Shown in pieces: positions 3,191 to 61,500 of a stretch of 64,000 bases of DNA (positions are counted from its first letter, which is position 1; each line of letters opens with the position of its first letter). The DNA is from an uncultured delta proteobacterium. GTDB taxonomy: Bacteria; Desulfobacterota; Binatia; UBA9968. The notes beneath the pieces are model-generated. The model was given only the letters and a program-made list of their open reading frames with translations, had not been told where the DNA came from and did not search any database. The stretch covers positions 192,001-256,000 of the forward strand of contig CAVXEP010000032.1 in the NCBI GenBank assembly GCA_963760795.1. The letters are read 5' to 3'. The position numbers and the translations under genes were made by a program.

Positions 3191-3311
3191 ACGAGTGACA
3201 AAGTAAGGGGGGACAAAAACAGAGAGTCTGGCTAGCGGCTAAGTTGCGGGAGTTACAGCGCCGCTGCCGAGTGCCTTAATCCATATCTGAAAAGTCCTGA
3301 CTATCGGCGGG

Positions 3312-14633: not shown

Positions 14634-14831
14634 ATGATTATTGTTCACATCAACCCGGCTGGCATCGAAAAAGTCTACTTTCATGCGGATTCCGATCTTG
14701 TCGAGGATTTATGTCTCGCCGTTTGGCCGCTGGTCCGTAGCGATCTCGACCGACTTCACAGAAAACTTAGAAAAACTGCCAAGCAAACTTTGGAGCGAGT
14801 CGAAGCCGGTGAGTCGAGGGCTAAGCCGTGA
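14634..14831 (+). CDS. Hypothetical protein (phage early region)
   Basis: RBS AAGGGGG; stop overlaps the next start (GTGA). Confidence 0.55.
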   Translation: MIIVHINPAGIEKVYFHADSDLVEDLCLAVWPLVRSDLDRLHRKLRKTAKQTLERVEAGESRAKP

Positions 14832-20127: not shown

Positions 20128-22701
<2,574 letters not shown>

Positions 22702-31038: not shown

Positions 31039-31174
31039 ACAACATAAACGCGCATTTACCTCATTAGCCGCGTTGAAACCGAATGCACGATGTGTTTCAG
31101 CTGCTTGCTTACGACAGCAATTTGGCTAGGAGGGGAGAGATGCGTGGCTTTCTCTCAGAAGAGCATCCGCGCTT

Positions 31175-37353: not shown

Positions 37354-37402
37354 AGAAAACCTATTCGCCCCCGTAGCTCAGGTGGATAGAGCGCAGGATT
37401 CC
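37354..37402 (+). repeat. Displaced 5' half of tRNA-Arg(CCT) plus 13 bp upstream (att site)
   Basis: 49 bp, one mismatch versus 39932-39980; ends inside the anticodon loop (..caggattcc). Confidence 0.9.
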
Positions 37403-39980
37403 CAAGAAAGTTCAGCCGTCCAACTCGGTTAACTTCCGTTCAAGTCAGCTAGGAAATACGATTTGTGTTAATGCATTTCAGTTGAAGTGCCATTGGCACG
37501 GCGGTTGGCACAAAGGGCTGATGCTATCACAGCTACTTGTGTCGCTATGTCGCGCCGCAGCGAAGTCGAACGGAACCGCCAGCAAGCCTATGGCAGAGCC
37601 GCGAAGACGCCAAGCCGGACTTACTCGGCTGCGTTTGCTCATATCCCGCTATTCCTTAATCTCCAGCACCATCGTCGCCACGTTCTTATTGACGGCAATG
37701 AACGGGCTTCCCATTTCTCGTTAGGATCGGGTCAGGCCTCTACCCTCGTCTTAATCAGTGCAAGGACCTGAACTTCTCATTTGTTTAGTAGGTCAGACAG
37801 GTGGGAACTATAGCCAACCTCGCCAGCCATCGGGAAGAACAGCGTCCGGCGAATCTTGTAGGTGTCAGTGAGTAACTTAACGTCAACTCGTTTGCACTTA
37901 GAGGTGCCTGGGCCATGGTGCCGCATTATTGCTGCGTTGGACTGGCTACAAGTGGTGGCACGCATATCGCCGCCCGCACCGGCGAGTCAACTTGTGCTAT
38001 GAGACGACTGAAACACCGGAGAATTAACCCTCGATGAGGCGCGTGCTGGCTATGCTTTTGGTTACGTTTCTTTCACGGCATCCAACCGTCTGAACGAAAT
38101 CTGTAGCTTGTATCGCCTGCCCATTAAAAGTCTCTCCTGAGATTGAAACGCTGCTATCGCCGCATTGGATACCACTTTGCGAAATGTTGAAACGCAGAAT
38201 CAAGTCATCGAGACCGTCTCCATTAACATCCCTAAAACGCCCCTTTCCATCGATATCTGAAACCTGATTAGGTCCGAATCTCACAGTCTCTGGATCAATT
38301 GCGCGAGCGTCAAAACTTGTGGAGCTAAGGATGGCGACAGGACTATCGCTTCTGCTTGGATTGACCGTATTGGCAGGGTCGTTGGGTTGAAAATCGAGAG
38401 CAACATTCAAGGGGCCAGTCTGAAACTCGACCGCGCCGATGTCGCAGGTTGCCACGCGGAAAAAGCCAAGCTGATCGGTCTGTGGACAGGCGGCTGAATT
38501 ACCTGCGCCGATCGCCGGACTGTCGGAGAGGAGCGGGAAATATCCAAGCCCCGGTTCGCCGTTGTCGGTAAAGGGACCCAATTTTGGATCACCGATGAAA
38601 TCGGTTGGCTGTAGTTCAACAGTGCAGCCAATGAGGTCGTCGAATAAGTTGTTGCCTAGCGAGGTAATTTCACCGTCGCAATTGGGCCCTCCAACGAAAG
38701 GGGCACTGGAAGTATTTTTTGCCAGGATCGTGTTTTGTAGGATCATTGAGTCGTTGTTTTGAACGTCATTGGCTATGCCGCCAGTACGGGGGAAAGCTAT
38801 AGCGGTGAACGACAAATTTTCCGCAATCGTGCCATTGGTGATACGAACAAGCCCAAGTATATTGCGAATGCCGCCGACACCAATCCCAGAATTGTTAGCA
38901 ATCGTCGTATTTATAATGGTCATTTCTCCGCTGGAGTTTAAAATACCGCCCGTGCGATCGCCGATATTGTTGGTTATGGTCGTATCCCTTATGGTTACAA
39001 GACCAGTGTCATTACTTATGCCTCCTACATGATGAAATCCACTGTTGCGGGCGACGCTGCTACCGGTAATAGTTAAAGTACCATGATTCGCGATACCGGC
39101 GCCGCCGAATTCATCAGCCGTGTTTCTTTCTATCACGCTGTTCGTTACGGTCGCCGTACCAAGATTGAATAGTCCAGCACCGCCACGTAAGGTATCGCCT
39201 TGCGTAAGAACCAGCGCATCGAGAGTAACTATTGCGCCAACCGCGACGTGAAAGATACGGAAGCGAGGCGCGTTGACATCCCTCTGTATTACGGCTTCCC
39301 CTGGTGAGCCACCACGGATCGTCAATTTCCCCGTTATAATCGGTAAACCATTTGGGCCATCGTTGTCGTTATCGACCTGCGTCAATGTATAGGTTCCAGG
39401 ATCGAGAAGTATCGTGTGCGGTCCCACCTTGAGATTGGCTTTGTTGATGGCTGCGATTAAGCAAGTCACATTACCCGATGAGCAGTGGAATTTAGCGGCG
39501 TGGAGCGGCGCCGACACTCCAAATATCAGTATGATTATGGCGAGAGTGAATACAGTCATACTTTACCCTCCGGTCCTTACTGAATGATTGAACCGCGAGC
39601 CATATCGTAGGGCCGCCAGGGAGTCAACCTATTTATGACTTAGGAAGAAACGCCGTCATGGACAGCCAAACCGCATCGAACCTACTGCAAACGGCTAAAG
39701 ATCGTTGCCGCACCGAAAGCTCGATGCACCACAAACCCATGCTGCGCGTGATACTCTTGAAGCGCGTGCCAGCGTCAAGTGGCCAGTTCCGTGAAGCGCT
39801 AAAGAATAAGCCCGGTTAAGGCTGGGAAATTGAGGGGCGCCGTCACCCTAAGGAAACGCTGGCGTGAAATTGGTTGACACAATCGGCACAGGGCCGAGGA
39901 TGGTAGAAAAATTACGTAGCTGATATATAACAGAAAACCTATCCGCCCCCGTAGCTCAGGTGGATAGAGCGCAGGATTCC
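37403..39980. mobile_element. Mini-island integrated at tRNA-Arg with 5'-half duplication; no integrase
   Basis: Bounded by 49-bp direct repeats. TTGGCAC x2 at 37493/37505 and TGACACA/CGGCACA at 39875/39884 resemble arm sites. Confidence 0.75.
38024..39559 (-). CDS. Secreted beta-helix (choice-of-anchor Q / Pmp-like) protein
   Basis: Signal peptide, GGAGI.N.G repeats, LQNTILA.N, SPAIGAG..C...DQ.G..R...CDIGAVE, C-terminal DVNGDGLDDL. Confidence 0.85.
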   Translation of the reverse strand: MTVFTLAIIILIFGVSAPLHAAKFHCSSGNVTCLIAAINKANLKVGPHTILLDPGTYTLTQVDNDNDGPNGLPIITGKLTIRGGSPGEAVIQRDVNAPRFRIFHVAVGAIVTLDALVLTQGDTLRGGAGLFNLGTATVTNSVIERNTADEFGGAGIANHGTLTITGSSVARNSGFHHVGGISNDTGLVTIRDTTITNNIGDRTGGILNSSGEMTIINTTIANNSGIGVGGIRNILGLVRITNGTIAENLSFTAIAFPRTGGIANDVQNNDSMILQNTILAKNTSSAPFVGGPNCDGEITSLGNNLFDDLIGCTVELQPTDFIGDPKLGPFTDNGEPGLGYFPLLSDSPAIGAGNSAACPQTDQLGFFRVATCDIGAVEFQTGPLNVALDFQPNDPANTVNPSRSDSPVAILSSTSFDARAIDPETVRFGPNQVSDIDGKGRFRDVNGDGLDDLILRFNISQSGIQCGDSSVSISGETFNGQAIQATDFVQTVGCRERNVTKSIASTRLIEG

Positions 39981-40018
39981 TAATCCTGAGGCCGCGCGTT
40001 CGAATCGCGCCGGGGGCA
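39945..40018 (+). tRNA. tRNA-Arg (CCT)
   Basis: GCCCCCG acceptor stem, D-loop AGGTGGATA, anticodon arm CAGGA-TTCCTAA-TCCTG, T-arm GCGCG-TTCGAAT-CGCGC; CCA not encoded. Confidence 0.97.
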
Positions 40019-40038
40019 TTTTTAAGCAGTCGGAATGT

Positions 40039-40076
40039 AAGGGGAAAGCTGGAAACGGTTTTCCCTTTTTCTTTTT
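40039..40076 (+). terminator. Terminator after the tRNA
   Basis: AAGGGGAAAGCTG-gaaa-CGGTTTTCCCTT followed by T-rich sequence. Confidence 0.7.
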
Positions 40077-40086
40077 CAAGTTCACC

Positions 40087-40112
40087 AAGGTCAACAAAAG
40101 GTCAACATGACG
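40087..40112. repeat. Arm-type integrase site pair near attL
   Basis: AAGGTCAACAAAAGGTCAACATGACG; near-identical copy at 52571-52596; related AAGTCAACA x2 at 40246-40265. Confidence 0.7.
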
Positions 40113-40291
40113 GTGCGTCGGGGTTTCGCATCGACGCACTTGCTCGCCTTGGCCATGATCCGCGATTCTTACTCGCGAACCGACCCAGGATTGTCAATGC
40201 TGCGCTTGAAAAAAACTCTTGTGATTTCTGCAAGTTGAAAAGAGCAAGTCAACATCAAGTCAACAGAGTACAAAACGGTGTTGAGACAAGC

Positions 40292-40744
40292 ATGAACCCA
40301 GCACAGAACGGCAAGACAAAGCCCCGGACCTACTCGAAGCATGGCCTTACTACCTTGAAGCGAGCCGTTAACGGGCTTGGTAACCGTGTGATCGACAAGA
40401 GGACGGCAACGGGCAAAGCCTTGGCTAAATGGCGCGCTGACTTGATTGAGGATCTCGGCGGCGACGACACCATTAGTACCCAACGAGTGGCGCTCATAGA
40501 TCTTGCCGTCAAATCCAAGCTTCTGTTGGATAGCATCGACACATGGTTACTCACCCAACCAACGCTTGTGAATGTCCGCAAGCGCTCGCTCATCCCGATC
40601 GTGCTTCAACGCCAGACCCTAGCCGATGGACTGGCGCGCTATCTGACACAGCTCGGCCTTGAGCGCCGGCACAAAGTCAAAACCATCACCGATCTACTCA
40701 ACGGCCATGATGAAACCAGGCCGGAGACCGAGACAAGGCAATGA
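40292..40744 (+). CDS. Probable terminase small subunit
   Basis: SKHGL motif, helical core, C-terminal LTQLGLERR; upstream of and coupled to terL through a short ORF. Confidence 0.55.
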   Translation: MNPAQNGKTKPRTYSKHGLTTLKRAVNGLGNRVIDKRTATGKALAKWRADLIEDLGGDDTISTQRVALIDLAVKSKLLLDSIDTWLLTQPTLVNVRKRSLIPIVLQRQTLADGLARYLTQLGLERRHKVKTITDLLNGHDETRPETETRQ

Positions 40745-41004
40745 CCATGCTCGCGACTGAGCCTGTCACAAGCGCAGAGCACGTAGCGTGCGCCAGAACT
40801 GCGTTAACGGCACCAGACAGCCACTCTCACGCGTGTGCTAATCCTTTCTGCAAGGCTTCAATGGGTGAGGCATCGCCACAGGGGAAGCATCGCCTTTATT
40901 GCTGTGACCGTTGCCGGCTGGATGCCTACGCACTGCGGCGGGCTAGAGCTCTGCTAAATCAATTCGGCATAGTTCGATTTCACAGTCTCTTGGATCAAGT
41001 ATGA
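40741..41004 (+). CDS. Small Cys-rich (zinc-finger-like) protein
   Basis: CANPFC...YCCDRCR; ATGA overlaps on both sides. Confidence 0.6.
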   Translation: MTMLATEPVTSAEHVACARTALTAPDSHSHACANPFCKASMGEASPQGKHRLYCCDRCRLDAYALRRARALLNQFGIVRFHSLLDQV

Positions 41005-43070
41005 AAATAATTCACCCGCTAACCGTCATCGACCAGCTGATCAAGAAGAACGAGCTAGGCCAGCCCTTCACCCTCATGGATCACCAGCGGGAAGTCTTGC
41101 GGCTGGCGTTCGACTTCGACAAAGACGGCCGGCTTCCTTGGGATACGATCATTTACAGCTGCATCAAGAAGAGCGGCAAGACCACGTTGAACGGCGCCAT
41201 CACCCTGGCATGGGGCTTTACCCAAGAGGCACCGAACGAGATTCTTATACTCGCCAACGACCTTGAGCAAACCCTGGCGCGCGTGTTCAAGACCATGGAA
41301 GGCATCATCCAGCATAACCCCGAGCTCCAGCGCGAAGCCGAAGTACAGGCCCGCAATATCTACCTGGCCAATCTGACCACCATCACGGCGATCAGTGGCG
41401 ACTATCAGGGCGCCGCGGGTTCTAATCATGGCTTTGTTTCCTATGACGAGCTGTGGGGCTACACCAGCGAAGCATCAACGCGTTTATGGGAAGAACTCAC
41501 ACCGGTGCCCACGCGCAAGAACTCGATTCGTTTCATTACCACCTATGCCGGCTTCGAGGGCGAGTCAAAACTGTTGTGGGATCTTTACAAGCAGGTGGTA
41601 AGCAAGGACGAACACCCCGAGGGGCAAGGCGAGCGGCTACACCCGGATTTACCGATCTTCGCCAATCGCGAAGCCAGGATCTTCGCCTATTGGGACCACG
41701 AACCGCGCATGGCTTGGCAGACTCAGGAATATTACCAGAGCCAGAAGAAAACCCTGCGGCCTGGAACCTATCTTCGCCTGCATGAAAACAAGTGGGCTAG
41801 TGCAGAGCAGATATTCATCACCGGCGAAATGTGGGACCCCTGCGTCGATCAATCCCATAGCCCGACTACCACCAGCCGCGAACCGTTATTTGTTGGCGTC
41901 GACATTGGCATCAAGCACGACAATGCGGCACGCGTCGCTGTTCGGTGGGATGAGGCCGGCGAGAAGTTGATACTTGTCAGCCATCGAATCTGGAAGCCGA
42001 CAGCAAGCCAGCCCCTAGACCTGGAAAACACCGTTGAGCAGGATCTCCGCGACCTGCACGATCACTGCGACGTCGTTGAATGTTTGGCCGACCCGTACCA
42101 GTTCCATCGGTCCATGACCACGCTACAGGCGGCCGGGTTGCCTATCCGCGAGTTTGCTCAGACCACTGCCAACACGACCTTGATGGGTCAAACCCTATTC
42201 GAGCTGCTCACCGGCAAGAATCTGGTGATCTATCCATCCGACGAGTTGAGACAGCAAGCCCTCTCGACCGTGGCGATTGAGAATCCCCGCGGCTGGCGCA
42301 TCGCCAAGGAAAAGTCATCGAAGAAGATCGACGCCATTGTCGCCTTGACCATGGCCTGTGTCGCCGCCATGGCTCACCGTGGCGAAGTCGGCGCGAGAGT
42401 GGCCCGGGGCTTCAACCGATCGCAGCACGTACCACAGGAAGGCATTGCTGCCGCAGGCGGGCCGGTATTCATCGGCCAGGTGTTTGGCGATTGTCCGTCA
42501 ACGGTGATTGTTCAAGCGGAGAATAGCGGCCAGGTGCGCGTATTGGCCGCGTTTGCCAGCGACGGCATGAGCCTGCGCCGGCACATTGAAACCACCGTTC
42601 GCCCCTGGTTATCCATCCATGCGCGGCAGGTGTTCAGTAATCGCCGCTTACTCTTGGGCACCCATGACGATACAGAGAGCTGGGACCTCATAGAGATCCT
42701 CGAAGAGCTACTAGGGGGAAGATGGGAACCTCCGACAAGCCCATGGGACAGCCGCAAAGACGCCATTCTGGATTTGCTCGCCAAGGCCACGCCTTTTAAT
42801 TTCACCCCCATGCTTCAGATCGATAGGACCAATGCACGGCTGGTTGTCGACGCGTTAAGCGGCCGGTGGAGCTATCACAAGGAACGCACCGACCGGCAGA
42901 ACACTTTCTACCATGTCGCCAACGCGTTGAGCCTGGCGATTTCACGGATCGCGCCGGAAACGGCTAACCGCAACCGCGAACCGTTCACGGTGAATATGAA
43001 ATTCAACCCTAGAAAGCCCCCGCAAGCGACAACGACCAACAGCCGATTTAATGTTTTTGGGCGGCGATAA
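41001..43070 (+). CDS. terL: Terminase large subunit with an extra C-terminal RNase H-like domain
   Basis: HQREVL (Q motif), KKSGKT (Walker A), VSYDELW (Walker B), ITTYAG, VGVDIGIKHD, KIDAIVA, then about 230 extra aa. Confidence 0.88.
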   Translation: MKIIHPLTVIDQLIKKNELGQPFTLMDHQREVLRLAFDFDKDGRLPWDTIIYSCIKKSGKTTLNGAITLAWGFTQEAPNEILILANDLEQTLARVFKTMEGIIQHNPELQREAEVQARNIYLANLTTITAISGDYQGAAGSNHGFVSYDELWGYTSEASTRLWEELTPVPTRKNSIRFITTYAGFEGESKLLWDLYKQVVSKDEHPEGQGERLHPDLPIFANREARIFAYWDHEPRMAWQTQEYYQSQKKTLRPGTYLRLHENKWASAEQIFITGEMWDPCVDQSHSPTTTSREPLFVGVDIGIKHDNAARVAVRWDEAGEKLILVSHRIWKPTASQPLDLENTVEQDLRDLHDHCDVVECLADPYQFHRSMTTLQAAGLPIREFAQTTANTTLMGQTLFELLTGKNLVIYPSDELRQQALSTVAIENPRGWRIAKEKSSKKIDAIVALTMACVAAMAHRGEVGARVARGFNRSQHVPQEGIAAAGGPVFIGQVFGDCPSTVIVQAENSGQVRVLAAFASDGMSLRRHIETTVRPWLSIHARQVFSNRRLLLGTHDDTESWDLIEILEELLGGRWEPPTSPWDSRKDAILDLLAKATPFNFTPMLQIDRTNARLVVDALSGRWSYHKERTDRQNTFYHVANALSLAISRIAPETANRNREPFTVNMKFNPRKPPQATTTNSRFNVFGRR

Positions 43071-43106
43071 AAAACTACACCATACAGGAGGGCTTACCAA
43101 GCGATA

Positions 43107-43135
43107 TTGACGCGCCTCGTGGGCGCGAATAGAAT
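43107..43135 (+). promoter_or_regulatory. Sigma70 promoter of the cargo nuclease gene
   Basis: TTGACG, 17 bp spacer, TAGAAT. Confidence 0.6.
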
Positions 43136-43175
43136 CGCGCCTCTAAGCCAAAATCAAATCTAGAGAGGCGCGCGC

Positions 43176-44012
43176 ATGGCTGAATTTGACGCGGAGTCGT
43201 TGCGAAAGGATGTAAACAAGTCGGGATTTCCTTTCCAGCTCAAAGTCGCCGACCAAATAAATTCTGCAAAACCTAAGCACCCCTGGTCAGTTGAATCCTC
43301 GGAACACTCTTGGGTCGATCCGGAATCAGGGAGTCGAGGGTTTATTGATCTAGTTCTCGCACACGAAACCTCCAACGGGTTAAAGCTCATTGTCGAATGC
43401 AAGCGTCCGCTCGGCGGCCGTTGGATTTTTTTAGTTGATAGGAAGGCAACCCCACAGTCCATGATTAAAAGCTTCTGGGCGTCCGGGGATAGCCCGCCGA
43501 AAAGCGGTTGGGACGACTTGCCATTTCAGCCCGTATCGCTTGAGGCTTCGGATTGCATAATTGCCGGACAGGACGAACGATCACCTTTACTTGAACGACT
43601 TGCTGATGGACTTCTACAGTCAATTAACGGCGTATCCGACCAAGAGCAGAAAATATTTGAGCGCTATCGTCGCTGCTCGCTCAGAATTTATATTCCCGTA
43701 ATAGTTACCGCCGCTGAGCTATTCGTCTGTTATGTTGACCCCACGTCGGAAATCTCAATCGATGGGGTGCTAGCCAAATCCGTAACATTCGAGTCGGTAG
43801 ACCATATTCGCTTCCGAAAGAGCCTCGCGAGTAAACTAAATTACCGCGAGATTTCCCACACCTTGCGCGGGGAAAACCTCCAAAAGGCGCGGAGCGTGTG
43901 GATTTTTAATGCTAACAATCTTGTGGAGTCGCTTCGCCAGTTAGATCTGATTCGTCCCACTAAGCGGGAATTGGCTATCGGTTTGGGGCACCCCTGGCCG
44001 TGGGCCATATAA
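43176..44012 (+). CDS. PD-(D/E)XK restriction-endonuclease-fold protein
   Basis: SGFPFQLKV, RGFIDLVL...LIVECKR, IPVIVT. Confidence 0.7.
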   Translation: MAEFDAESLRKDVNKSGFPFQLKVADQINSAKPKHPWSVESSEHSWVDPESGSRGFIDLVLAHETSNGLKLIVECKRPLGGRWIFLVDRKATPQSMIKSFWASGDSPPKSGWDDLPFQPVSLEASDCIIAGQDERSPLLERLADGLLQSINGVSDQEQKIFERYRRCSLRIYIPVIVTAAELFVCYVDPTSEISIDGVLAKSVTFESVDHIRFRKSLASKLNYREISHTLRGENLQKARSVWIFNANNLVESLRQLDLIRPTKRELAIGLGHPWPWAI

Positions 44013-44032
44013 AAAACTTCAGGCGCCGACCC

Positions 44033-44287
44033 CTACGCCCGCGGGTGCGACTTACCGTCGATACGGCGATTTCCGGGTTTGCCGTCCAATAACTCGCCCG
44101 TTTCCTCCCGCTCGCGCAGAAGTTCAGAGTAGCAAGTGTCAACGATCAGCCTGGCGAGTTCCAGACCGATCAACTCAGCTACATCGGGGTTCTCCAACTC
44201 GAAGTTGTGTACATTCAGTGTCGTTAGCTCCACCACTGAGTTGTTGGGGCGCTGATATAGGACGCAAGCGCCAGGCGCGGTAAGCAC
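44033..44287 (-). CDS. Hypothetical protein (possibly a fragment)
   Basis: 84-aa ORF, no recognised motif. Confidence 0.35.
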   Translation of the reverse strand: MLTAPGACVLYQRPNNSVVELTTLNVHNFELENPDVAELIGLELARLIVDTCYSELLREREETGELLDGKPGNRRIDGKSHPRA

Positions 44288-44302
44288 TAAAATGGGATCC
44301 GT

Positions 44303-44487
44303 TCAAAGAATGGCATAGGCAAGGCTTAATATCGCGGTAAAATAAGTTAGCCAGAAAGTTAGAAATGGCCAGTTAAACTTTTGTTCGATTGGCTGGATTC
44401 TGCTTGGCTGAATTTTACTTGGACGATGTCGTGATGTGGTCCGGAAGCCGCCAGGTGTTGGGCTCTGCGCCAGCGTTGTTTTCATCT
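44303..44487 (-). CDS. Small protein with C-terminal TM helix
   Basis: GAGAGGAG RBS before MKTTLAQ; tail NWPFLTFWLTYFTAILSLAYAIL. Confidence 0.5.
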
Positions 44488-44856
44488 TGTTTCTCCTCTC
44501 TGACAAGAACATACGCAATGGATATGCCAGATTCATAACCGCCTAATCTTACAGGATTACTGCTTCACAGATAGGGGAGACAAAGTTCCATTGCAGGTGC
44601 AAATTTGGGAATCTGTCAGTGTTCTTCCTACACTAACCATCGATATAATATCTTGTCGTCCGAGGAATTATCGTGGCTGGGTGTGAAGTGCGAACGGCCT
44701 TTGCCGTTTCCGATATGATGATTGCCCGCCGTTGTATTCGATTGCAGCTTATCTCGGAATCGTTGTCCGACGGTATGGCGTAGGCGCGAGAATCTGTAGC
44801 GCTACGATGAGAAAAGTGAATTTACGGGATCTTCGGCAGTCTAACCGCACGACTGG

Positions 44857-45838
44857 CTACCCCAACTCGCGCACCACGTCTCGCGCTTTCTTGTCATTGC
44901 GAAGCCCGACAAACGAGGCATGCCGCAAGTGATCGTCCGGTGTCCATTCCGTAAATTCGATTTGTACGACTAGCCGAGGTTTGAGCCAGACGCAGTTTTT
45001 CATTTCTTCAGCAGTAAGCGCCCATTGGGTGCGTCTCTTTTTCTCCGGCAGATTCGCGAACGGGCAGACATCGGTTTCCAGTGGTTTCATCCGGGCCATG
45101 ACCTCGCGCCGTACATGGTGCACAAAGCCGGCGCGAACTTTACCGGCGTAGAGCAGCTTGTCGCCCTGATAATACCCTACGATTATGGCATCGAATGGAT
45201 TGCCAGGCGTGTAGCCGCCAACGACGAGCTCCTGGCCTTGGTTGACCTTATATTTGACCCAGGCTCCGCTGCGCTTGCCAGGCTCGTAAAACGAATCTTG
45301 CCGCTTGGCGATGATACCTTCGAGTCCGAGTTCCGTGATCGCCCGAATCATGTCGTGGGCGGAAGCGGTGACGGTTTGCGACAGGTCAACCGCTGATGAC
45401 TTCTTACGGACAGGTCCCAACAGGTCGCGTGAGCGCCTCACGGCGTTTCAACAGCGGCTCATGGAGCATGCTTCGGCCACGAAGGATCAGAAGATCAAAG
45501 ACGTAAAAGCGGATCGCGGACGCTTCGGAGCGGTGGCGCTGGAGCGTATTGAACGAGACTTGACCCGCGGAATCCATCGCGACGATCTCGCCGTCGACAA
45601 GCGTGCCGGTCGGCAGAAGTTCACATGCTTTGGCAATTGCGGGGAACTGAGACGTGAGAGCATTTGCTCTGCGCGACCACAGGCTCACGCCGCTGGCATC
45701 CTTCCCTGCCAAACATCGATAGCCGTCTAACTTGATTTCGTAGAGCCAGTCCGGTCCTTCGGGCAGGTTACGGACGCCGAGCGCATACATCGGCTCGATA
45801 AAGCTGATTTTCTCTGGAAGTGATTTCGGCACGCTCAT
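44857..45838 (-). CDS. ligD: ATP-dependent DNA ligase (LigD ligase domain); frameshift near 45430
   Basis: YEIKLDGYR, LVDGEIVA, FYVFDLL, then LEGIIAK, WVKYK, IEFTEWTPDDHLRHASFVGLRNDK. Confidence 0.88.
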
Positions 45839-45974
45839 GTTAACGGGTGGAGAAGGGCGTTGCTAAAAGGCAACCGAGGCCCATTGCGTGAAGATGAGCG
45901 CCGAGCCCGAAGACGCGCCCGATCCTCAAGCCCGCGGGTGCGTATTCGTGTTTGCGCACTGAGCCCCAATTCTT

Positions 45975-46823
45975 TCAAATCAAATGAAACTTCTTCTCTA
46001 AAATTCTTAATGCATCGCACGGCAGGTCTTTCCTAAATGCCGGTATGCTCGGCGCAGCTTCCAGTTTTTTTAGTAAGTCATCTTGCGCTTTTCGCCGGGC
46101 GTTAGGACCACCGGGCAAGGCTTTGTTAAAATCAAACCCTTGTAAAATGCGTTTCATCGCTGCTTTGTCTTGGGCATCCTTTTTTTGTTGGAGCGTCTGT
46201 CGTTTTTTGCTTCTAACTTGGGCTTTTAGCTCGTTCCGTCTTCGATTGTCGTAAATCTTGCCACAGGTTTTGGGGTTACAGCAGACCTGCCGCTGACGCT
46301 TTTTGGCGAAGAACTTTTGACACACCAAGCAGCTTCCTAGGTTTAGGATTTCGCCCGTTTCTAACAGTCGAGCGAGGTCAAGCCACATAGCCCCGGCGTC
46401 GATTGAAAATGAACCGTTGCCCGTTTTAATCTTGCCGCGCGGGTTAGAAAGTAAACGCCATTGCGGCTTGCGCGCTCGGGCGTTAACGAAGCGGACTAGC
46501 TGGCGCAATCGATTAACCGGAGTCAGGTATTTCACGATGATCGTTTTCTTGAAATGTTCTCGAATATCTCTGTTTACTGTCCAGGGTAGTGTGGCTTCCG
46601 GTGCGACTAGGTGTCGAAGCTCATCTTGAATTCGCTCGTGACGTTCTCGGTTTTTTGCCAGTACCGCGTCTCCCGATTCATTTCCAAACATCCATTTGTG
46701 GAGAAGGGACCCTTCGCCCTCCTTGGCGAACTTGTGGCTTTTTGGAGGCGACGTGTTTAGGTAATGAATCAGTTTGGTGAGTTCGGCGCTTGGTCCGGTC
46801 ATATAAAAAGAAGTTCCTACCAT
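45975..46823 (-). CDS. Hypothetical protein with CGNR-like zinc finger
   Basis: CLVCQKFF....QVCCNPKTCG..YDNRRR; divergent from the MerR-like HTH gene. Confidence 0.6.
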   Translation of the reverse strand: MVGTSFYMTGPSAELTKLIHYLNTSPPKSHKFAKEGEGSLLHKWMFGNESGDAVLAKNRERHERIQDELRHLVAPEATLPWTVNRDIREHFKKTIIVKYLTPVNRLRQLVRFVNARARKPQWRLLSNPRGKIKTGNGSFSIDAGAMWLDLARLLETGEILNLGSCLVCQKFFAKKRQRQVCCNPKTCGKIYDNRRRNELKAQVRSKKRQTLQQKKDAQDKAAMKRILQGFDFNKALPGGPNARRKAQDDLLKKLEAAPSIPAFRKDLPCDALRILEKKFHLI

Positions 46824-46901
46824 GTGAAACGATTTTTGTTGATCTAATGCTATATCGGATTTAGATTGCGGTCAACAACGTTAAGCAGAAAGGGGCAATA
46901 C

Positions 46902-47084
46902 ATGTTGATTTCAGAAATCGCCGAGAAGGCTGGCCTGCATCCCGAGACTATCAGGCGCCTAGAAAAACGCGGGCTCATTAGTTCCAAGCGCGACGTGAAC
47001 GGCTGGCGCAATTACTCGCCGGAGGTTCTCGTTAAATTAAAAAGTCTCTATGTGCGCGGCACTGAGGAGCAAACAGCAGCGTAA
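46902..47084 (+). CDS. MerR-type HTH small DNA-binding protein
   Basis: MLISEIAEKAGLHPETIRRLEKRGLISSKRDVNGWRNYS. Confidence 0.85.
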   Translation: MLISEIAEKAGLHPETIRRLEKRGLISSKRDVNGWRNYSPEVLVKLKSLYVRGTEEQTAA

Positions 47085-47166
47085 CGTATTTTGTCATGAG
47101 TCCGGTGCGGGTAAAAAAAGCCCGCCGGCCACCACGCCGAACGGGCTTTAAACGAAAGGAAATGAT

Positions 47167-47403
47167 GTGCAGACCATTACCGCAGCCAAACAATTTAGTC
47201 AACGACGAAGAATCGACCCCGACTTTGAGCCCGAGCTTCGCAAGCTCTTCGATCTTGCATTTGTTTTTCTAAACGCCAGTGACGGCGACATGGCGGAAGC
47301 TGAGGGCTTACTTGATGACTTCATTGATCTGCTTTTCGAAGGCGGCGTTTTGTCTACGTGGCGCTATCGAATCTTACTGGCACAGGTGCGCGAGGGTCTG
47401 TGA
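47167..47403 (+). CDS. Hypothetical protein
   Basis: AAAGGA RBS; stop overlaps the primase GTG. Confidence 0.55.
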   Translation: MQTITAAKQFSQRRRIDPDFEPELRKLFDLAFVFLNASDGDMAEAEGLLDDFIDLLFEGGVLSTWRYRILLAQVREGL

Positions 47404-49399
47404 GTAATCTCGATACTGCGATCGGTTATCGGCGCCGCGGCTTCTCGGTTATCCCGATCAGGCCCAAAGGTAAAAAACCCTCGTCGCCTGGGAACCCTTT
47501 CAGTCAGAACCCGCATCCGAAGAAATTATCAAATTTTGGTTTACCAATTGGCCTAACGCAAACATAGCAATCGTGACGGGCGCTATCTCGGATGTTGTTG
47601 TGATTGACCTGGACAGCGACGGAGCCAAGGAGAAGATCAAGGCGCTAGTCCCTGACTATGATCTTTCCGCTGTGCCAAGAGTGCGGACCGGCCGCGGCGG
47701 GTATCATCTGTTTTTCAAGCATCCGGGGGGCAGCGTTCAAACTCGCGCGGGCGTTCTTCCAAAGACCGACATCCGCGCCGATGGCGGCTATGTCGTCACG
47801 GCGCCTTCTATCCATGAGAGCGGGAAAACCTACATATGGGAAGTACCGGTAAGCGCGGAACTGCCCACATTGCCCCCAGAGCTATTCAAGCTTCTTTCGG
47901 CGCCATCTAGCAACAACAACAACAACGACAATGGCTATCGCGAGCGATTCAATACAGCGCAATCGCTAGACGGAGTTCCCGAAGGCCAGCGCGATGAAAC
48001 CATTTTTAAACTCGCCTGCAAATTGAGATCAGCCGATGTGCCGCAAGAGATGGCCGAGACTCTAATTGTTGAAGCCGCGAGAAACTGCCAGCCGGCGTTT
48101 TCTGAAAAAGTAGCATTAGAGAAAGTCAAAAGGGCTTATGTTCGATACCAGCCGACGGGAGCGAAGGGACCACCTAATCAGAAGGAAATATGGCCAGAGT
48201 TTTTGACCGCGAAAGAGATTCTTCAGGCGCCGAAGGATCCGACCCGATGGATAGTTTCGGAGTGTTTGCCGGCTGGCGGTGCTTCCGTCCTAGTCGCGAA
48301 GCCGAAGGTAGGAAAGAGCACAATCGCCGCGGACCTCGCTATATCGGTATCGCGTGGCGAACCATGGCTAGAGCGCTCGACACAACAATCGCCAGTTGCC
48401 TACGTATTCCTTGACGGTCCGCTTACCGATATTGCCGATACGTTCGTGCAGCTTGGGCTGCGTGAATCGGATCCGGTGTTCATTCATGCCGGCAGCGCGC
48501 CTGCTGATTCTATCCCGTGGATACTGGCCGCGGTGAAAGAGAAAGGCGCCCGGCTGGTGATCATCGATGTTTTACAGAAGTTCTGCCGGTTCGAAAACAT
48601 CAACGACTATTCCGAAGTCTCGACGAAGATGGAGCCCCTACTCGAGGCGGCCCGGGCCGGGAACTGCCACTTGATGACGTTGCATCACGCCAAGAAGGAT
48701 TCCCACGACGACCTTGACGCGGCGATTGGATCAACGGCCATCCGGGGGCTTTGCTACACCTACGTATTCGCCAAGCGGCTGGCTAATAGCGAGCGGCGCA
48801 TCCTGAGCAGCGACCAACGCGGCGGAAAAAACTTCGGCGAAGTGGGTATCGGCTTCGATAAACTCACCGGGCGGCTTTACGTGCAAGGCACGATTGACGA
48901 TGTTGAGATCGAAGAGGCATCGCCGTTGATTCTCAAAGTGCTTGAAGGCGACGACGAACAGCGCGAGAACGAAATCCGAAAGTCCGTTCCTATGCGCGGC
49001 TGGATTGTCGGCAAGGCGCTGCGTTCGTTAGTCAAAAAAGGTGACGTTGAGCGCACTGGTACCGGGAAGAAGGGAAGCGCATTCCGCTATTCTCTAGCCT
49101 CTAACCTGCTGGCCAATAGCGAAGGACCGATGGGCCATTCCGATGGCCTCTTAGGAAGGGGGATTGTTAAGGGGGAAACGGATTCTAGTCCCTCTTTTCA
49201 TTCTCTAGGAAACGGCACTGTGGGACTAGCATCCCAAAAAAACCTTCAAGATGTTGAAAACACTAAAAAAGATTCTAGTCCCAAGGTTCGGGACGAGCAT
49301 GGGACGAGCAGGGACGAGAATCTTTTTTCGGGGGGGTCGGGACTAGCATTTACTGGCGCCGAAAATGTTCCTGAAAGTGGCTGGACAAAGGTGCGATGA
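47400..49399 (+). CDS. Bifunctional primase/polymerase + PriCT + AAA (RepA-like) helicase; frameshift near 47479
   Basis: GFSVIPIRPKGKK[P]LVAW..WPNANIAIVTG..VVIDLD, RTGRGGYHLFF, DIRADGGYVV, VPEGQRD, AKPKVGKS, LVIIDV, LHHAKK. Confidence 0.9.
49181..49350. repeat. Iteron cluster (putative ori) in the 3' end of the primase gene
   Basis: GATTCTAGTCCC at 49181 and 49271; opposite-sense GGGAC(T/G)AG(C/A)A at 49222, 49290, 49301, 49311, 49339, around A-rich 49236-49270. Confidence 0.7.
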
Positions 49400-49596
49400 G
49401 ATACGCCGAAGACATACTGATTGAAGTCAAGATTCTTGACGATGGCGCCATACTGGGGCGTCGCAAAGATCGAAAGCCGATGACCGCGGTCGACCTAAAA
49501 GCGGCGCAGCAGTTGGCAGACAGTGAGCCGGGAATCACGGTCGGTGACGTGCTGCGAGTAATTCCGGGCGCAAAGGTTCTACAGAAAGGCCGATGA
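49396..49596 (+). CDS. Hypothetical protein
   Basis: ATGA overlap with the primase stop. Confidence 0.55.
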   Translation: MRYAEDILIEVKILDDGAILGRRKDRKPMTAVDLKAAQQLADSEPGITVGDVLRVIPGAKVLQKGR

Positions 49597-49663
49597 GACA
49601 GTTTAGTTTCACGGGATTTTAGAAAACCAAGGAGAGGCTCATTTCTCTCGGAGACCTGATTTT

Positions 49664-50038
49664 ATGATCACCACAGGCGCGCTGAATTTTGAGAGGGTTG
49701 GATTATCCGAGCTAATCATCACCGCCGGCCCGGACAGTCTGCGAACTATCACCAGCGCCGCCGCGATGCATGAACACGCGGTCCAGATTCGCGCGGCATT
49801 GGCGCAATTAGCTCAGCACGGGACGCCGCGCATCATGGACATTGTGCTAAACCACAATCGCTTTTCTTCCCCATACGTCCCTTACCTGTTTACGATTACC
49901 GCCGAGGGCTCGCAGCGTAAGCTTGATGTCGGTACCCGCGGTTACATATGCGTTGCTGACCATCGCCCTGGTGTTCTTACTAGCGGTTTGGTCGAACCTT
50001 CAGTCTTGGAGTCATTAGCCGACTTTTTGGATGGATGA
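49664..50038 (+). CDS. Hypothetical protein
   Basis: 124-aa ORF with GGAG RBS in the satellite operon. Confidence 0.6.
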   Translation: MITTGALNFERVGLSELIITAGPDSLRTITSAAAMHEHAVQIRAALAQLAQHGTPRIMDIVLNHNRFSSPYVPYLFTITAEGSQRKLDVGTRGYICVADHRPGVLTSGLVEPSVLESLADFLDG

Positions 50039-50059
50039 TAAACAAGGAGAAATCTATTT

Positions 50060-50676
50060 ATGAGTATAGATCTTGAACAATTGCGCACCGACCGCGGCCA
50101 GATCGCCAACGATCGCGCATGGCGAGAACCGCGGCGCCTGTTGGAAGATTTAGAACCAGAGTTAGCCGAATTACGCGGCGAAAGGGCTGTGCTTGAAAAT
50201 CCGCCGGCATCGGTCAAGTCAACGGCGGACAGGATTTTACGCGAGTGGAATCCTTCGCCGACCGATCCGAAGGGGTTGGCGACAGCGGTTCGCGAGCTGC
50301 GTAGCGCCGCCATCGGCGCCTTGCAACTGATTTTTGACAAGCCCGCAGAGATCGCGGCATTACTGGAGGAGATCGAAACCGTAATCCGGCAACCTTTACG
50401 AGTACCAGCCCGGCCGTGCTCGCCGCTGTCTATCGTAGACGGATCGCGCCGTTACTTGGCAACGCCAAGGGCCTTGAGACCATCGTTGATGAGCTGTTGC
50501 GCCAGGAGCAAGACGCGCTTGCGCTGGCAAAGCAGCATTTAGAAGCGCAGCAGGCAAACCAAGCTGAGCCCGTACCGAAACAGCGTCGCACGCTTTCGAC
50601 TGTGCTGTCCCCCGACGATGAGCCCAAGCATCGGTCGTCGCGCGAATTCTCGGTGCTATCCGGCTCGGTGCGATAA
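50060..50676 (+). CDS. Helical coiled-coil protein, probably one gene frameshifted near 50410
   Basis: AAGGAG RBS; 50060-frame and 50416-frame ORFs join into a continuous helical sequence. Confidence 0.55.
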
Positions 50677-50692
50677 TTGGCCGAGCGCAGGT

Positions 50693-51238
50693 ATGAGCGA
50701 GCCGGCGAAAAATCCGTTTGACCTGTTAGTCGATCAGATCCGCGAAGTTGTGCGCGAAGAGATCCGGGCAACCACAAAGGAGACCCCGCAGAAGAGTCTT
50801 TTTTCAACCAAAGAGGCGGCCGCCATTTTGAACGTCGAAGAGTCATGGCTTGGCGCGAAAGCGAGAGCCGGAAAAATTCCGCACCGTATGCTTGGCCACT
50901 ACCGTTATTTTTCCGTGAGCGACATTGACGAGATCATTGCAAGCGCTGGTGTACCCGTGGTACACATGAGCCATGAAGGGCAAGGAGTTCAAGCGAACAC
51001 GGAAGGCGTTGAAGATGAGTCAAGCCCAACTGGCGAAAGTGATGGGCGTTACGGTGACGGCGGTGGCGAGATGGGAGAGGGACGAGCGGCCAATCTCCGG
51101 GCCGGTAGCGTTGGCGATGAAACTCTTGCTCGAAAAAAAATAGCCGGAGGGGAAAATGTCGACACACAAAACCAGCGCGGACACTTGGGAAGTCAGATTT
51201 CGAGTCCAAGGGCAGCAAAAGCAAAAGACCTTTCGTAA
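50693..51238 (+). CDS. Excisionase-like HTH_17 protein with a long acidic tail
   Basis: LFSTKEAAAILNVEESWL..ARAGKIPHRMLGHYRYFS; the tail overlaps an XRE gene and the integrase start. Confidence 0.7.
   Translation: MSEPAKNPFDLLVDQIREVVREEIRATTKETPQKSLFSTKEAAAILNVEESWLGAKARAGKIPHRMLGHYRYFSVSDIDEIIASAGVPVVHMSHEGQGVQANTEGVEDESSPTGESDGRYGDGGGEMGEGRAANLRAGSVGDETLARKKIAGGENVDTQNQRGHLGSQISSPRAAKAKDLS
50973..51143 (+). CDS. XRE/Cro-like HTH regulator, 56 aa
   Basis: Not in the ORF track. MKGKEFKRTRKALKMSQAQLAKVMGVTVTAVARWERDERPISGPVALAMKLLLEKK; preceded by palindrome GTGTAC-N5-GTACAC (50949-50965). Confidence 0.8.
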   Translation: MKGKEFKRTRKALKMSQAQLAKVMGVTVTAVARWERDERPISGPVALAMKLLLEKK

Positions 51239-52051
51239 CTACCGGGCGGCGGTGAGTTTTGACGAGAAAACCAAAACGCAATTGCGCGACGGCGACTACG
51301 TGGCGCCGTCGGTTTTCAACGTGAAGGAGATCGTTGAAAAGTGGCTGGAGGCGCGCCGGCCCCGGTGGAAGGAGCAAACCTATCTCAGCCACAAAACACA
51401 CTTGAGCAAATACATCACGCCACGGCTTGGGGAGATAAAGGCAACGAGCCTTCGGGCGGTTGATGTGGAGACGGCCGGCGCCGAGTGGGAAAAATCAGTG
51501 AGCGCGAAAACCGTCAACAAAATATTCGCCACGTTGGCGAGTTGAACGCCTTGCGTTGGGCGACGATTAGTTTCAAAACTTCAAAGATTTTTGTGAACCG
51601 ATCGCTAACCGAGCTCAAAGGCGGCGCCGTACTCGAAAAGCCCAAGACACCTAACGCATATGGTTACGTCAAGGTACCGGCCGAGCTTGTCGCAGAGCTT
51701 CGACGCTGGAAACTTCGCTGTCCGCCGTCGCCGAACGACTTTGTTTTTGCCGATGAGTTGGGCCGGCCGATGAACCGCAAGCCAAACAACCGGATGCTTA
51801 AAGCGGTATGCGATCGCGCCCAAGTCCGAGCCTTGACGATGAATAACTTGCGCCATTCCTTTGCCAGCCAACACTTGATCGCTGGAACCGCGCCGCTCGA
51901 AGTCTCAAAACTCATGGGCCATAGCGATCCGGCCGTCACGCTGAAAGTTTATTCACGATGGGCAGAGCGAGAAGAGTCAAAGGCGGAACTGGCACTGGCG
52001 AGCCGGATATTCGGAGCCGCAGAACCGCAGGAACAAACCGGGAGCGAGTGA
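51156..52051 (+). pseudogene. int: Tyrosine integrase with internal deletion and frameshift
   Basis: Arm-binding/SAM N-part up to NKIFATL, then directly VGELNALRW in another frame; NNLRHSFAS, LMGHSDPAVTLKVY. Box I TGxR is missing. Confidence 0.88.
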
Positions 52052-52599
52052 TGAAAGAGGACGCACCATTCGAGACCGTAACCAAGTTGGAAGCGGCAGA
52101 GCGGCAGTTGCGTGTCGCTATCCGAATGTTCTTTGAGTGTAAAGACATGATCGCGGTCCACGTACTTGCGGTTGGCGCGCAGGAAATTTTCAGCAAATTG
52201 GGTAAGAAGCATGGATTCAAAGGAATGTGGGAATCTATCGACTCTTTACCGCCGGAAAACAAAAAAGTGCTTGTCGACCATCTGAGAAAGGCGCAGAATT
52301 TCTTTAAGCATGCCAGCCGGGACCCAGAGGAGAAATTAGACTTCGATTATGAGGATACACGCTTTGTCCTTTTTGATGGGGTTGGGCTATGCCACGCCCT
52401 CATCGGTCGCTTCAGCCCAGAGATGACGATGTATCTCGGCTGGTTTGCGTCAAAGTACCCCGCGATGCTGAGACTAACGCCGCTGAGAGAAATACTCATC
52501 GATTCGACCAGCAAAATTAACTTTGAAAACTTCGAGAACGTCCTTCAGTTCCTCGATAAGCGGAACACTGAAGGTCAACACAAGGTCAACATGACGTGA
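52051..52599 (+). CDS. Helical protein, HEPN-like (inferred)
   Basis: TKLEAAERQLRVAIRMFF..D..AVHVLA and LRKAQNFFKHA; ATG overlaps the int stop. Confidence 0.6.
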   Translation: MKEDAPFETVTKLEAAERQLRVAIRMFFECKDMIAVHVLAVGAQEIFSKLGKKHGFKGMWESIDSLPPENKKVLVDHLRKAQNFFKHASRDPEEKLDFDYEDTRFVLFDGVGLCHALIGRFSPEMTMYLGWFASKYPAMLRLTPLREILIDSTSKINFENFENVLQFLDKRNTEGQHKVNMT

Positions 52600-52647
52600 G
52601 ATTTTCTGAAGTAAGGTCAGTTAAGAGAAACATGCAACCCGTTGATT
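52571..52647. promoter_or_regulatory. Arm-type sites and IHF site next to attR
   Basis: AAGGTCAACACAAGGTCAACATGACG at 52571; reverse complement of 52635-52647 is AATCAACGGGTTG, matching WATCAANNNNTTR. Confidence 0.65.
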
Positions 52648-52698
52648 TACATAGCGCAGGTGAGTTGATAACACCGGATGAACGCAATGTCCCATCGT

Positions 52699-52744
52699 TT
52701 CCTAATCCTGAGGCCGCGCGTTCGAATCGCGCCGGGGGCATTTT
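52699..52744 (+). repeat. attR: displaced 3' half of tRNA-Arg
   Basis: Identical to 39977-40022. Confidence 0.95.
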
Positions 52745-52978
52745 AAATCAAGTCTCTCCCACGCCGGTTGCAAGTTATCCTCTGTCGAAGTTTCTCCATG
52801 GTGTGGCGTTTTCAACTTATTGAATCTGCCGTCGGATACAGCAACTGGCCGAATGGTTTGGGCTGGAGGTTGCCCAGGTCGTGGCAATTGCGCGCGCGCC
52901 TCTAACTAACCCCTTTCTTCTCCTGCTTGCATTACCACCTGGTATAGCGATAAGAGTGCGGCAAGGAAAAGGTGCACC

Positions 52979-53245
52979 ATGCCGACATATGACCTAACTG
53001 TTCGTTGCAAGGATTGCGGCCACGATCATTCGATTCTCATGAGGCTCCACATCGAAGAGGGTGCGGACCGCAAGCAAAGCATCGCTGAGCTATATCATGG
53101 GCGTTCTGTCCCTCCACAGGTTGCGGCCATTCGCGGGCACCTCGCGTTCTGTCACAAAACGGGTAGGAAGTTCCCGCTGGAAAACGATAGCGAAATTTAT
53201 TTAGTGCCGCCGACGGTTTTCAGACGATATACGGTCACCCAATAA
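52979..53245 (+). CDS. Small Cys/His protein
   Basis: CKDCGHDH...CHKTG; AAGG RBS. Confidence 0.55.
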   Translation: MPTYDLTVRCKDCGHDHSILMRLHIEEGADRKQSIAELYHGRSVPPQVAAIRGHLAFCHKTGRKFPLENDSEIYLVPPTVFRRYTVTQ

Positions 53246-53474
53246 GCGCGCCAAAAGCCTGGTTAATAACGCCAACATCATTCATAAAGTCGATTAGGTT
53301 GTGTCCCGTAACGCACTCCCCGGGCTTGGTGTGGCGGAGCGAAGCCTGCCATCGCTATCAAGAGCCGAATTGACCAATGCGATAAAGGCGGCCAACTGTC
53401 TTTCCAGGTTTTTTTTCATGTGGTAAGTGTTCTTAAGTGTTGCAGCTTCCGGTCTGTTTTTCAGTCCCGTATTG

Positions 53475-53502
53475 GCACGTGCGAATCGCGCCGGTGGCAT
53501 TT
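53475..53502 (+). repeat. Degenerate tRNA-Arg 3' end (older att remnant)
   Basis: gcacgtgcgaatcgcgccggtggcattt versus tRNA gcgcgttcgaatcgcgccgggggcattt, 25/28 identical. Confidence 0.7.
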
Positions 53503-61467: not shown

Positions 61468-61500
61468 AGGCTTAACAACCGGTCAGAGGAGGTCTTGAGT

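Follow-up and report, generated by a model that had tools for sequence, protein, structure and literature searches.

A tRNA-integrated island with its own terminase in an uncultured Binatia bacterium: a possible phage satellite

To our knowledge, the phage satellites described so far either borrow the packaging motor of a helper phage, as do P4, PLE, and the phage-inducible chromosomal islands (PICIs) that carry at most the small terminase subunit (TerS), or bring a whole head, as do the capsid-forming PICIs (cf-PICIs). Classical PICIs and Staphylococcus aureus pathogenicity islands (SaPIs) use the large terminase subunit (TerL) of the helper. The mycobacterial elements phiRv1 and phiRv2, of approximately 10 kb, carry a recombinase, a primase-polymerase (prim-pol), and a terminase, together with a prohead protease, a capsid gene, and a serine integrase. 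In the accessible text of de Sousa et al. (2023; PMC10085698), TerL is a distinguishing core component of cf-PICIs, in which genes for the capsid, the portal region, and head-tail adaptors/connectors come in addition; the putative satellites listed there include phiRv1/2. Of the other satellites, AH14b is described as lacking a terminase (PMC4936722, accessible text), VEIMEs as carrying TerS and “motor-like ATPases” (PMC9618062, accessible text), and EPIPs as carrying TerS (PMC12822802, accessible text). A satellite with TerS and TerL but without head genes is not described in the accessible text of these four papers, the supplements of which could hold cases. Here, we report a 12.7-kb island within a stretch of 64,000 nucleotides (hereafter, the window) from an uncultured delta proteobacterium (Binatia, UBA9968; contig CAVXEP010000032.1, positions 192,001 to 256,000). 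The island is a small mobile element that has integrated at a tRNA gene; a TerS-like protein and a TerL are predicted in it, and capsid and portal genes were not recognised. It may be a phage satellite that packages its own DNA into the capsids of a helper, a reading to which we assign roughly even odds (about 0.5), and the copy in the window is probably a dead member of its family.

The island resembles cf-PICIs in being a small integrative island with an integrase (int), a regulator of the AlpA/excisionase type, a primase-replicase, a putative TerS, and a TerL of its own. Its terL is recognised by phrog_9 and by invariant motifs, and an integrase (the gene of which is broken), regulators (HTH_17 and MerR), and a primase-replicase (Prim-Pol/AAA_25) are present, whereas capsid and head-tail adaptor/connector genes were detected by profile searches neither in the island nor in its bounded relatives. 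The likeness to classical PICIs and SaPIs lies in the size, the tRNA or site-specific integration, the replication module, and the putative gene for packaging specificity (TerS), although the island brings TerL too. Among the components of the PICI model, int, HTH_17, and prim-pol are found, and the TerS candidate, g01, has no match to a TerS profile. With phiRv1 and phiRv2, the island shares the small size and the combination of recombinase, prim-pol, and terminase, and the layout of these two elements resembles that of two related loci (L098 and L067) more than that of the window island. Among 50,697 deposited phage records, the nearest TerL proteins are 23-25% identical over approximately 65% of the protein and belong to HK97-like siphophages with the order TerS-TerL-portal-protease-capsid (such as Streptomyces phage Lilbooboo and Pontimonas phage phiPsal1). 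In these phages, the portal gene lies within approximately 140 bases after TerL and is followed by the protease and capsid genes; by contrast, TerL of the island is followed by unrelated cargo.

Insertion at tRNA-Arg(CCT)

The integration site is defined by the following features (window positions).

39945-40018, plus strand: tRNA-Arg(CCT), the integration target (ARAGORN; Rfam tRNA, 68.9 bits)
39977-40022: attachment site (att) core on the left, attL, 46 nt, equal to the 3′ part of tRNA-Arg(CCT) from the anticodon loop on (exact direct repeat and alignment)
52699-52744: attR core, 46 nt, an exact direct repeat of the attL core
52745-53500: leftover of an earlier insertion, with a degenerate third att copy (88%) as its right end, 53475-53500

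This tRNA gene is the only one in the window according to ARAGORN and Rfam. The two cores are identical over 46 nt, and 52 nt match at 96%; their start-to-start spacing is 12,722 bp. Sites without the island were found in three members of the same genus. In G013, an identical tRNA is joined directly to the counterpart of window position 53475; in G017, the tRNA is 97.5% identical and the junction lies at position 53554; and in G003, the match to the window resumes at 52923, after a diverged tRNA-Arg. Furthermore, G022 has, at the equivalent site, an attR-like copy together with the right end of a related element. The exact att repeat and the empty sites in related genomes thus demonstrate that the bounded 12.7-kb insertion is real, in agreement with an initial annotation made from the sequence, which had described both att repeats and a fully bounded element. 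Because of the degenerate third att copy at 53475-53500, the segment 52745-53475 is regarded as the leftover of an older insertion.

At 37354-37405, 2.6 kb to the left of the tRNA, the 5′ half of tRNA-Arg and the 13 nt preceding it are repeated over 52 nt (96%). The sole open reading frame (ORF) between this half-tRNA copy and the tRNA (37406-39931) encodes 511 aa with a choice-of-anchor Q domain (38024-39559, minus strand), and the interval resembles another insertion into the anticodon loop, here from the opposite side.

The terminase module and its family

Three genes follow attL on the plus strand.

40235-40744, plus strand: g01, TerS-like protein, 169 aa as listed (probable start at 40292, giving 150 aa)
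40741-41004, plus strand: g02, 87-aa Cys-rich (zinc-ribbon-like) protein between g01 and TerL (ORF)
41001-43070, plus strand: TerL, 689 aa, with ATPase, nuclease, and a second terminase-nuclease-like domain at residues ~466-689 (phrog_9)

Residues 11-470 of TerL match phrog_9 with an E value of 5.5e-41, and in an alignment of 22 sequences the Walker A residues G59-K60-T61, E150 of the DELW motif, and the nuclease residues D301, D364, and D444 are invariant, so that the identification of terL in the initial annotation holds. PHROG, Pfam, and motif evidence together predict an N-terminal ASCE ATPase followed by a C-terminal RNase H-like nuclease with an acidic triad. The ratios of nonsynonymous to synonymous substitution rates (dN/dS, Nei-Gojobori method) against six relatives range from 0.06 to 0.11 for the core and from 0.17 to 0.26 for the extra domain, at dS values of 1.4-2.3, which are saturated, and with two further pairs giving no estimate; they point to strong purifying selection on the core.

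The extra domain was modelled from 12 sequences as residues 466-689 (predicted local distance difference test [pLDDT] score, 76.9; predicted TM-score [pTM], 0.76) and adopts an RNase H-like form in the model. Comparison of the model with TerL nuclease domains gave VIA Z scores of 16.6 (D6E), 16.1 (P22), 14.4 (SPP1), and 14.1 (HK97); the first 14 rows of the ranking are all terminases, followed by RuvC at 9.6, and Foldseek gave an E value of 2.5e-6 and 31 matches at E ≤ 0.001. An invariant Gly-Gln occupies the first strand of the domain. Because Gln replaces the acidic residue of this strand, at the assumed position of the first catalytic Asp, the extra domain is probably not catalytic; more speculatively, it may serve docking or competition with a helper terminase. 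TerL proteins of the family are either long (~670-690 aa) or short (~470-530 aa). In a tree of 53 rows from a quick maximum-likelihood search, the long form constitutes one clade of 14 rows (Shimodaira-Hasegawa-like approximate likelihood ratio test [SH-aLRT], 99), nested among short-form lineages that also have g01, and the loci bearing a prohead-protease-like gene lie outside this clade. That the head-less elements with a long TerL descend from protease-bearing ancestors is only a hypothesis, since the search was quick and the tree is midpoint-rooted with one distant phage as outgroup.

The upstream gene g01, previously called terS-like, has no match in Pfam, PHROGs, or NCBIfam, and its 651 homologues include none with a name; it is the position and a weak fold similarity that speak for the label. 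Of the 36 loci with a length of 4.5 kb or more, 16 have g01 ahead of TerL in the same orientation. The AlphaFold2 (AF2) model, obtained from 36 sequences (pLDDT, 73), consists of helices and a small hairpin. Foldseek gave no match to this model in the PDB at E ≤ 0.001, and in BFVD 7 of the 10 top matches are annotated as small terminases, one of the P27 family, with probabilities of 0.9-1.0 and TM-scores of 0.45-0.57. Co-folding of g01 with TerL residues 1-470 gave a median score of 0.22 versus a mark of 0.32, a result that speaks neither for nor against a complex. On account of the fold similarity and the conserved position, TerS is the best reading of g01, although it is not established. The adjoining g02, earlier noted as a Zn-finger gene, is indeed a Cys-rich ORF; it has no family match, and homologues are equally placed in L016, L017, L018, L020, L026, L030, L031, and L100.

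Of 8000 candidates scored in searches with TerL, 1659 qualified as homologues at E ≤ 1e-3; their source names include Binatia, Methylomirabilales, and Nitrospira. A metagenome scan confirmed 381 of 492 stretches as relatives, of which 80 loci were kept, and a TerL match occurs in 12 of 61 related genomes, all of the window’s family. Two relatives are particularly informative as to layout. The TerL of L026 is 69% identical to that of the window, and its core is identical to that of the genus member G024; the element is bounded by 103-nt exact repeats (5233-5335 and 21720-21822) at tRNA-Leu(TAA) and carries, in order, g01, g02, an IS21 insertion, a PD-(D/E)XK-like ORF, a long TerL, a response-regulator domain protein, a primase-helicase, an excisionase, and an intact integrase of 338 aa. 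The IS21-type pair (transposase and IstB/DnaC-like ATPase) lies at L026:6834-9240, between g02 and TerL, in an element that is otherwise intact; an older tandem remnant of the same locus consists of a TerL C-terminal fragment (2980-3247) and a 70% att copy (2363-2465). In L089, with a TerL 75% identical to that of the window, the order is att, g01, TerL, a Gp49/helix-turn-helix (HTH) pair (toxin-antitoxin), MerR, a 78-aa ORF, RepO, DnaB, an NrS-1-type polymerase, HTH_17, and int. TerL and int are approximately 6 kb apart in L092 and are likewise paired within a few kilobases in L098. Genes for tRNAs found near the module comprise Ser-GGA (L031, beside g01), Ser-CGA (L019 and L059), and Leu-TAA (L018), and the cargo of relatives includes toxin-antitoxin and methyltransferase/helicase genes. 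Judged by sequence comparison, these loci constitute a family of small integrative elements with a conserved TerS-like g01, Cys-rich protein, and TerL, accompanied by a replication module that is exchangeable, a regulator of the MerR type, an excisionase, and a tyrosine integrase, and the family appears conserved, widespread, and abundant in soil metagenomes.

In the 20 main ORFs of the island, Pfam and PHROGs revealed no capsid, portal, protease, tail, or lysis family; NCBIfam and PADLOC revealed no head family in 14 of these ORFs, and PHROGs none in 9 alternative-strand ORFs. The reported lack of portal and capsid genes therefore stands for Pfam, PHROGs, and NCBIfam profiles. The major capsid protein, portal, tail, and lysis genes expected of a tailed prophage (Caudoviricetes) are thus not seen, in an island of 12.7 kb that is fully bounded. 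The flanks of 34 related loci were also scanned (74 ORFs in 7 loci; 57 ORFs by Pfam, including L089; 135 ORFs in 26 loci; and 63 further plus-strand ORFs), without a match to a portal family. Neither L026 nor L089 gave a head or portal match, and no prohead-protease homologue was found in the 14 rows of the long-TerL clade or in the genome of the window itself. The initial annotation had suggested a search for syntenic elements at tRNAs in relatives, which are now available in L026 and L089, with a like gene order; larger relatives with portal and capsid genes, its sign of a deleted prophage, did not emerge, as these two closest relatives are not larger prophages. Because L026 and L089 share the layout without head genes, the island is not considered a deleted prophage.

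An additional locus, L093, carries a 10-kb same-strand block after a TerL of 54% identity, with two repeat-rich paralogous ORFs (9389-10639 and 12089-13429; 416 and 446 aa) that are 33-39% identical over the greater part of their length, in several registers. The block was suspected to be a structural module, for which no support emerged: its ORFs have no Pfam or PHROG match, nothing similar occurs in the other loci or in the window’s own genome, and the paralogues are repeat-rich.

Other genes, repeats, and lesions of the island

Downstream of TerL, the island contains the following features, the repeat at its left end being listed last.

43176-44012, plus strand: g04, 278-aa protein of no recognised family, cargo; possible PD-(D/E)XK nuclease
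44033-44287, minus strand: g05, 84 aa, recurring elsewhere in the genome beside ligase fragments
44857-45838, minus strand: ATP-dependent DNA ligase (LigD-ligase-domain type) in two ORFs (DNA_ligase_A_M and A_C)
45975-46823, minus strand: g09, 282-aa protein of no recognised family with a Cys4 motif, divergent from MerR
46866-47084, plus strand: MerR-family regulator (PF00376, E 5.7e-11)
47400-49399, plus strand: Prim-Pol/PriCT_1/AAA_25 replicase (Pfam)
50618-51238, plus strand: HTH_17 excisionase-type protein, the real start of which is probably internal (PF12728, E 9.7e-9; phrog_1840 excisionase; TIGR01764 weak)
51156-52051, plus strand: tyrosine integrase pseudogene (Pfam and PHROGs domains)
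51958-52599, plus strand: g20, 213-aa protein of no recognised family
40087-40112, plus strand: 26-nt repeat with two tandem 11-nt GGTCAACA units, with a copy at 52571-52596

Several names in the initial annotation are confirmed by profiles, namely xis (PF12728 and phrog_1840) and, in the proposed divergent CGNR-like/MerR pair, MerR. The CGNR-like partner, g09, has no match in Pfam, NCBIfam, or PADLOC; phmmer against PDB sequences gave nothing meaningful, Atlas gave no named family above a 26% share, and a 28% identical homologue exists in L019. For g04, termed a nuclease, Pfam, PHROGs, NCBIfam, and PADLOC gave no match, phmmer against PDB sequences again nothing meaningful, and related loci no homologue; the tentative nuclease assignment comes from an Atlas lead of 0.82 to a GAPS4 PD-(D/E)XK family and from a motif seen by eye. 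The HEPN-like label of g20 found no match in Pfam, PHROGs, NCBIfam, PADLOC, or, meaningfully, in PDB sequences by phmmer, and no match was obtained for the proposed XRE gene. In the replicase, the Prim-Pol, PriCT_1, and AAA_25 domains were verified in a frameshifted gene, whereas the iterons claimed for it reduce to 2.7 copies of an 11-nt unit in the prim-pol 3′ end and short GTCAACA repeats elsewhere.

Small ORFs fill the intervals: two on the minus strand between g04 and the ligase, g05 among them; one of 78 aa between MerR and the replicase, conserved in L020 and L089; and three between the replicase and the HTH_17 gene. MerR homologues precede the replication module in L017 and L089. Copies of g05 were found by blastn and tblastn on contigs C12, C13, C22, and C3 of the same genome (G000). 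The ligase and g05 recur at C13:35266-40672, C12:213662-220326, and C22:106187, on C5, C9, and C18, and at window positions 2975-3133, the two lying within a few kilobases of each other on C12 and C13; they may be a separate repeated module. Elsewhere in the window, a TIR_2-domain protein is encoded at 3312-4316 (minus strand), and the genes for an HTH_36 protein and a DnaB-type helicase, in this order (14828-16824), could be the replication module of another mobile element.

The motif RGTCAACA occurs at 8 sites in the window versus approximately 2.5 expected, and 7 of the 8 are inside the island. Tandem pairs lie at 40089/40100, 40247/40258, and 52573/52584, and one further site lies in the palindrome between MerR and g09. 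In the excised circle, the outer pairs would flank the att core, and they are candidate arm-type sites for Int/Xis or sites for a regulator. GTCAACA repeats were not found in 19 related loci and are therefore island-specific, which rules out the motif as a packaging (pac) site common to the family.

Three genes of the island are broken. The integrase, the int of the initial annotation, has tyrosine integrase domains in two out-of-frame pieces (51156-51545 and 51485-52051), and no single frame holds complete core-binding and catalytic domains. In an alignment with L102 (G006; 406 aa, ~38% identity), the nearest homologue that is intact, residues 1-142 correspond to 51156-51533 and residues 217-389 to 51524-52036 in another frame; approximately 74 residues (~220 bp), from the end of the core-binding domain to the start of the catalytic domain, are gone. 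The frameshift lies near 51524-51533, and the Pfam Phage_integrase match starts at profile position 38. The overlap of the two frames at the junction, approximately 10 nt, would be consistent with a deletion between short repeats. Since approximately 74 residues are deleted and the rest is out of frame, the copy is probably stranded and immobile.

The other two lesions are of a different kind. In prim-pol, intact homologues of which are 655-675 aa, a single 1-nt frameshift lies near 47474-47485 in an A6C3 run; against an 82% identical homologue (P0242), residues 3-37 are in one frame and 25-644 in another. The ligase, correctly recognised as ligD in its domains and split into two ORFs, has a 1-nt frameshift near 45404-45441; at position 45428, one base is absent in three contigs of relatives from a soil run, and in the 93% identical ligase copy on C13 the frame is likewise shifted, though elsewhere in the gene. 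Host genes of the window carry similar indels: recQ is split into 5124-6317 and 4436-5245 and the phosphoketolase gene (xfp) into 28655-29791 and 29754-31067, each by 1 nt. A possible third split housekeeping gene, for pyruvate:ferredoxin oxidoreductase, lies at 61495-63292. The splits of housekeeping genes point to indel errors in the assembly (88.9% complete, 35 contigs). Because recQ and xfp carry like indels, the 1-nt shifts in prim-pol and the ligase are possibly assembly errors, and their use as a sign of decay was rejected as unsafe. Only the integrase deletion is considered a likely real lesion.

Evaluation of the satellite reading

In a phage satellite of this kind, infection or induction of a helper would be followed by excision of the island by Int/Xis at the 46-nt att core. 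The island would subsequently be replicated by its own prim-pol helicase, its own TerS-like protein would select island DNA, and its own TerL would dock on the portal of the helper and fill helper procapsids. A broader proposal is that the family represents an undescribed, widespread class of soil satellites between PICIs, with TerS only, and cf-PICIs, in which the head genes have been discarded and the full terminase kept, and in which the inactivated second nuclease domain of one clade lets the motor dock on the portals of unrelated helpers or out-compete the terminase there; this is put forward as a tentative possibility.

The following observations weigh against a satellite that packages itself into helper capsids. 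The TerS matches of g01 in BFVD are weak (E 0.04-0.3, none ≤ 0.001), and the verdict of no head gene rests, for g04 and g09 (~280 aa each), on profiles. A head protease or capsid-type match occurs in L067 and L098, and tblastn revealed a protease homologue in L036 (to which L035 is identical) and a weak one in L088. As the related loci are mostly short contigs, the absence of head genes is well founded for only a few bounded elements. Signs of a helper phage or of packaging, such as virion-derived reads, an attP junction, or a packaging terminus, did not turn up: the attP junction that the initial annotation had proposed to look for did not appear in one soil DNA run (7% of words), which gave short contigs of relatives and none bridging the att sites, and a scan of IMG/VR with TerL peptide patterns found no relative. 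The window’s own genome, 88.9% complete, has no match to Phage_capsid, Phage_portal, Peptidase_S78, SPP1_portal, or Terminase_6N, and no resident helper is thus evident; these blanks are weak evidence, since the sensitivity is low, a TerL_nuclease Pfam search of the same genome having missed the TerL of the island itself. Finally, copies in the genus are often fragments with stops (20 matches in G018), and the own genome has a degenerate TerL copy on C31 and pieces on C22 and C6. Two “joints” in the soil run, skipping 915 and 84 nt, each rest on one low-depth contig of 88% likeness and are not taken as evidence. No RNA sequencing run containing island sequence is listed.

The TerL proteins of the protease-bearing loci L067, L098, and L036 are 45-66% identical to that of the window, and L036 additionally has a tape-measure-like ORF. 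Because these more distant TerL relatives carry a prohead-protease-like gene, the capsid-less form looks like one end of a spectrum. The protease-like genes lie at L098:10313-11149, L067:2572-3798, and L036:3572-4474, 0.45-0.7 kb after TerL, and a portal gene would not fit in between.

The TerL-type ATPase-nuclease and its partners might instead interfere with phages, by cutting or mis-packaging concatemers or blocking the portal, or process the replication products of the island, so that the locus would serve defence or replication. This would agree with the lack of any helper or particle evidence, with the toxin-antitoxin and methyltransferase/helicase cargo of relatives, and with the extra, probably inactive nuclease-like domain of the long TerL, which is unusual for packaging enzymes. 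We nevertheless consider it unlikely: the TerL alignment shows no variation in the motifs of a working terminase (ATPase and nuclease), which are under apparently strong purifying selection, a TerS-like partner is kept upstream of TerL, PADLOC matched no defence model in 14 island proteins, and, like transmissible satellites, the island carries replication and integration modules of its own.

It is improbable, and slightly more so than a defence or replication role, that the island is the non-functional remnant of a larger element that has lost its head genes, be it a phiRv1-like or cf-PICI-like capsid-forming island or a prophage. The broken integrase, the two 1-nt frameshifts, the decayed copies elsewhere in the genome and genus, the older remnant adjoining attR, and the relatives at 45-66% TerL identity with a prohead-protease-like gene would all fit such decay. 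However, the head-less layout recurs in the independently bounded L026 and L089 with intact integrase and replicase, the 14 rows of the long-TerL clade are without a protease homologue, TerL is intact with dN/dS near 0.1, and the frameshifts may be assembly errors, as in the host genes recQ and xfp. A self-sufficient minimal virus with a capsid and portal too divergent for recognition is very improbable, for although several ORFs lack a recognisable family and PHROGs coverage is poor for phages of uncultured soil phyla, these ORFs (≤ 282 aa) are shorter than portal proteins, which are usually over about 350 aa, g04, g09, and g20 are not conserved among family members, and tail and lysis genes were not found by Pfam and PHROGs.

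If a satellite supplying only the motor is indeed the correct reading, the docking of TerL on the portal would be open to hijack across elements, and the family would offer a natural system for probing the determinants of terminase-portal specificity. A TerL with tandem nuclease-fold domains would, moreover, merit structure determination as an oddity in its own right. Few phages have been cultured from the lineages in which the family occurs; given its abundance in soil metagenomes, it may be a notable route of gene transfer there.

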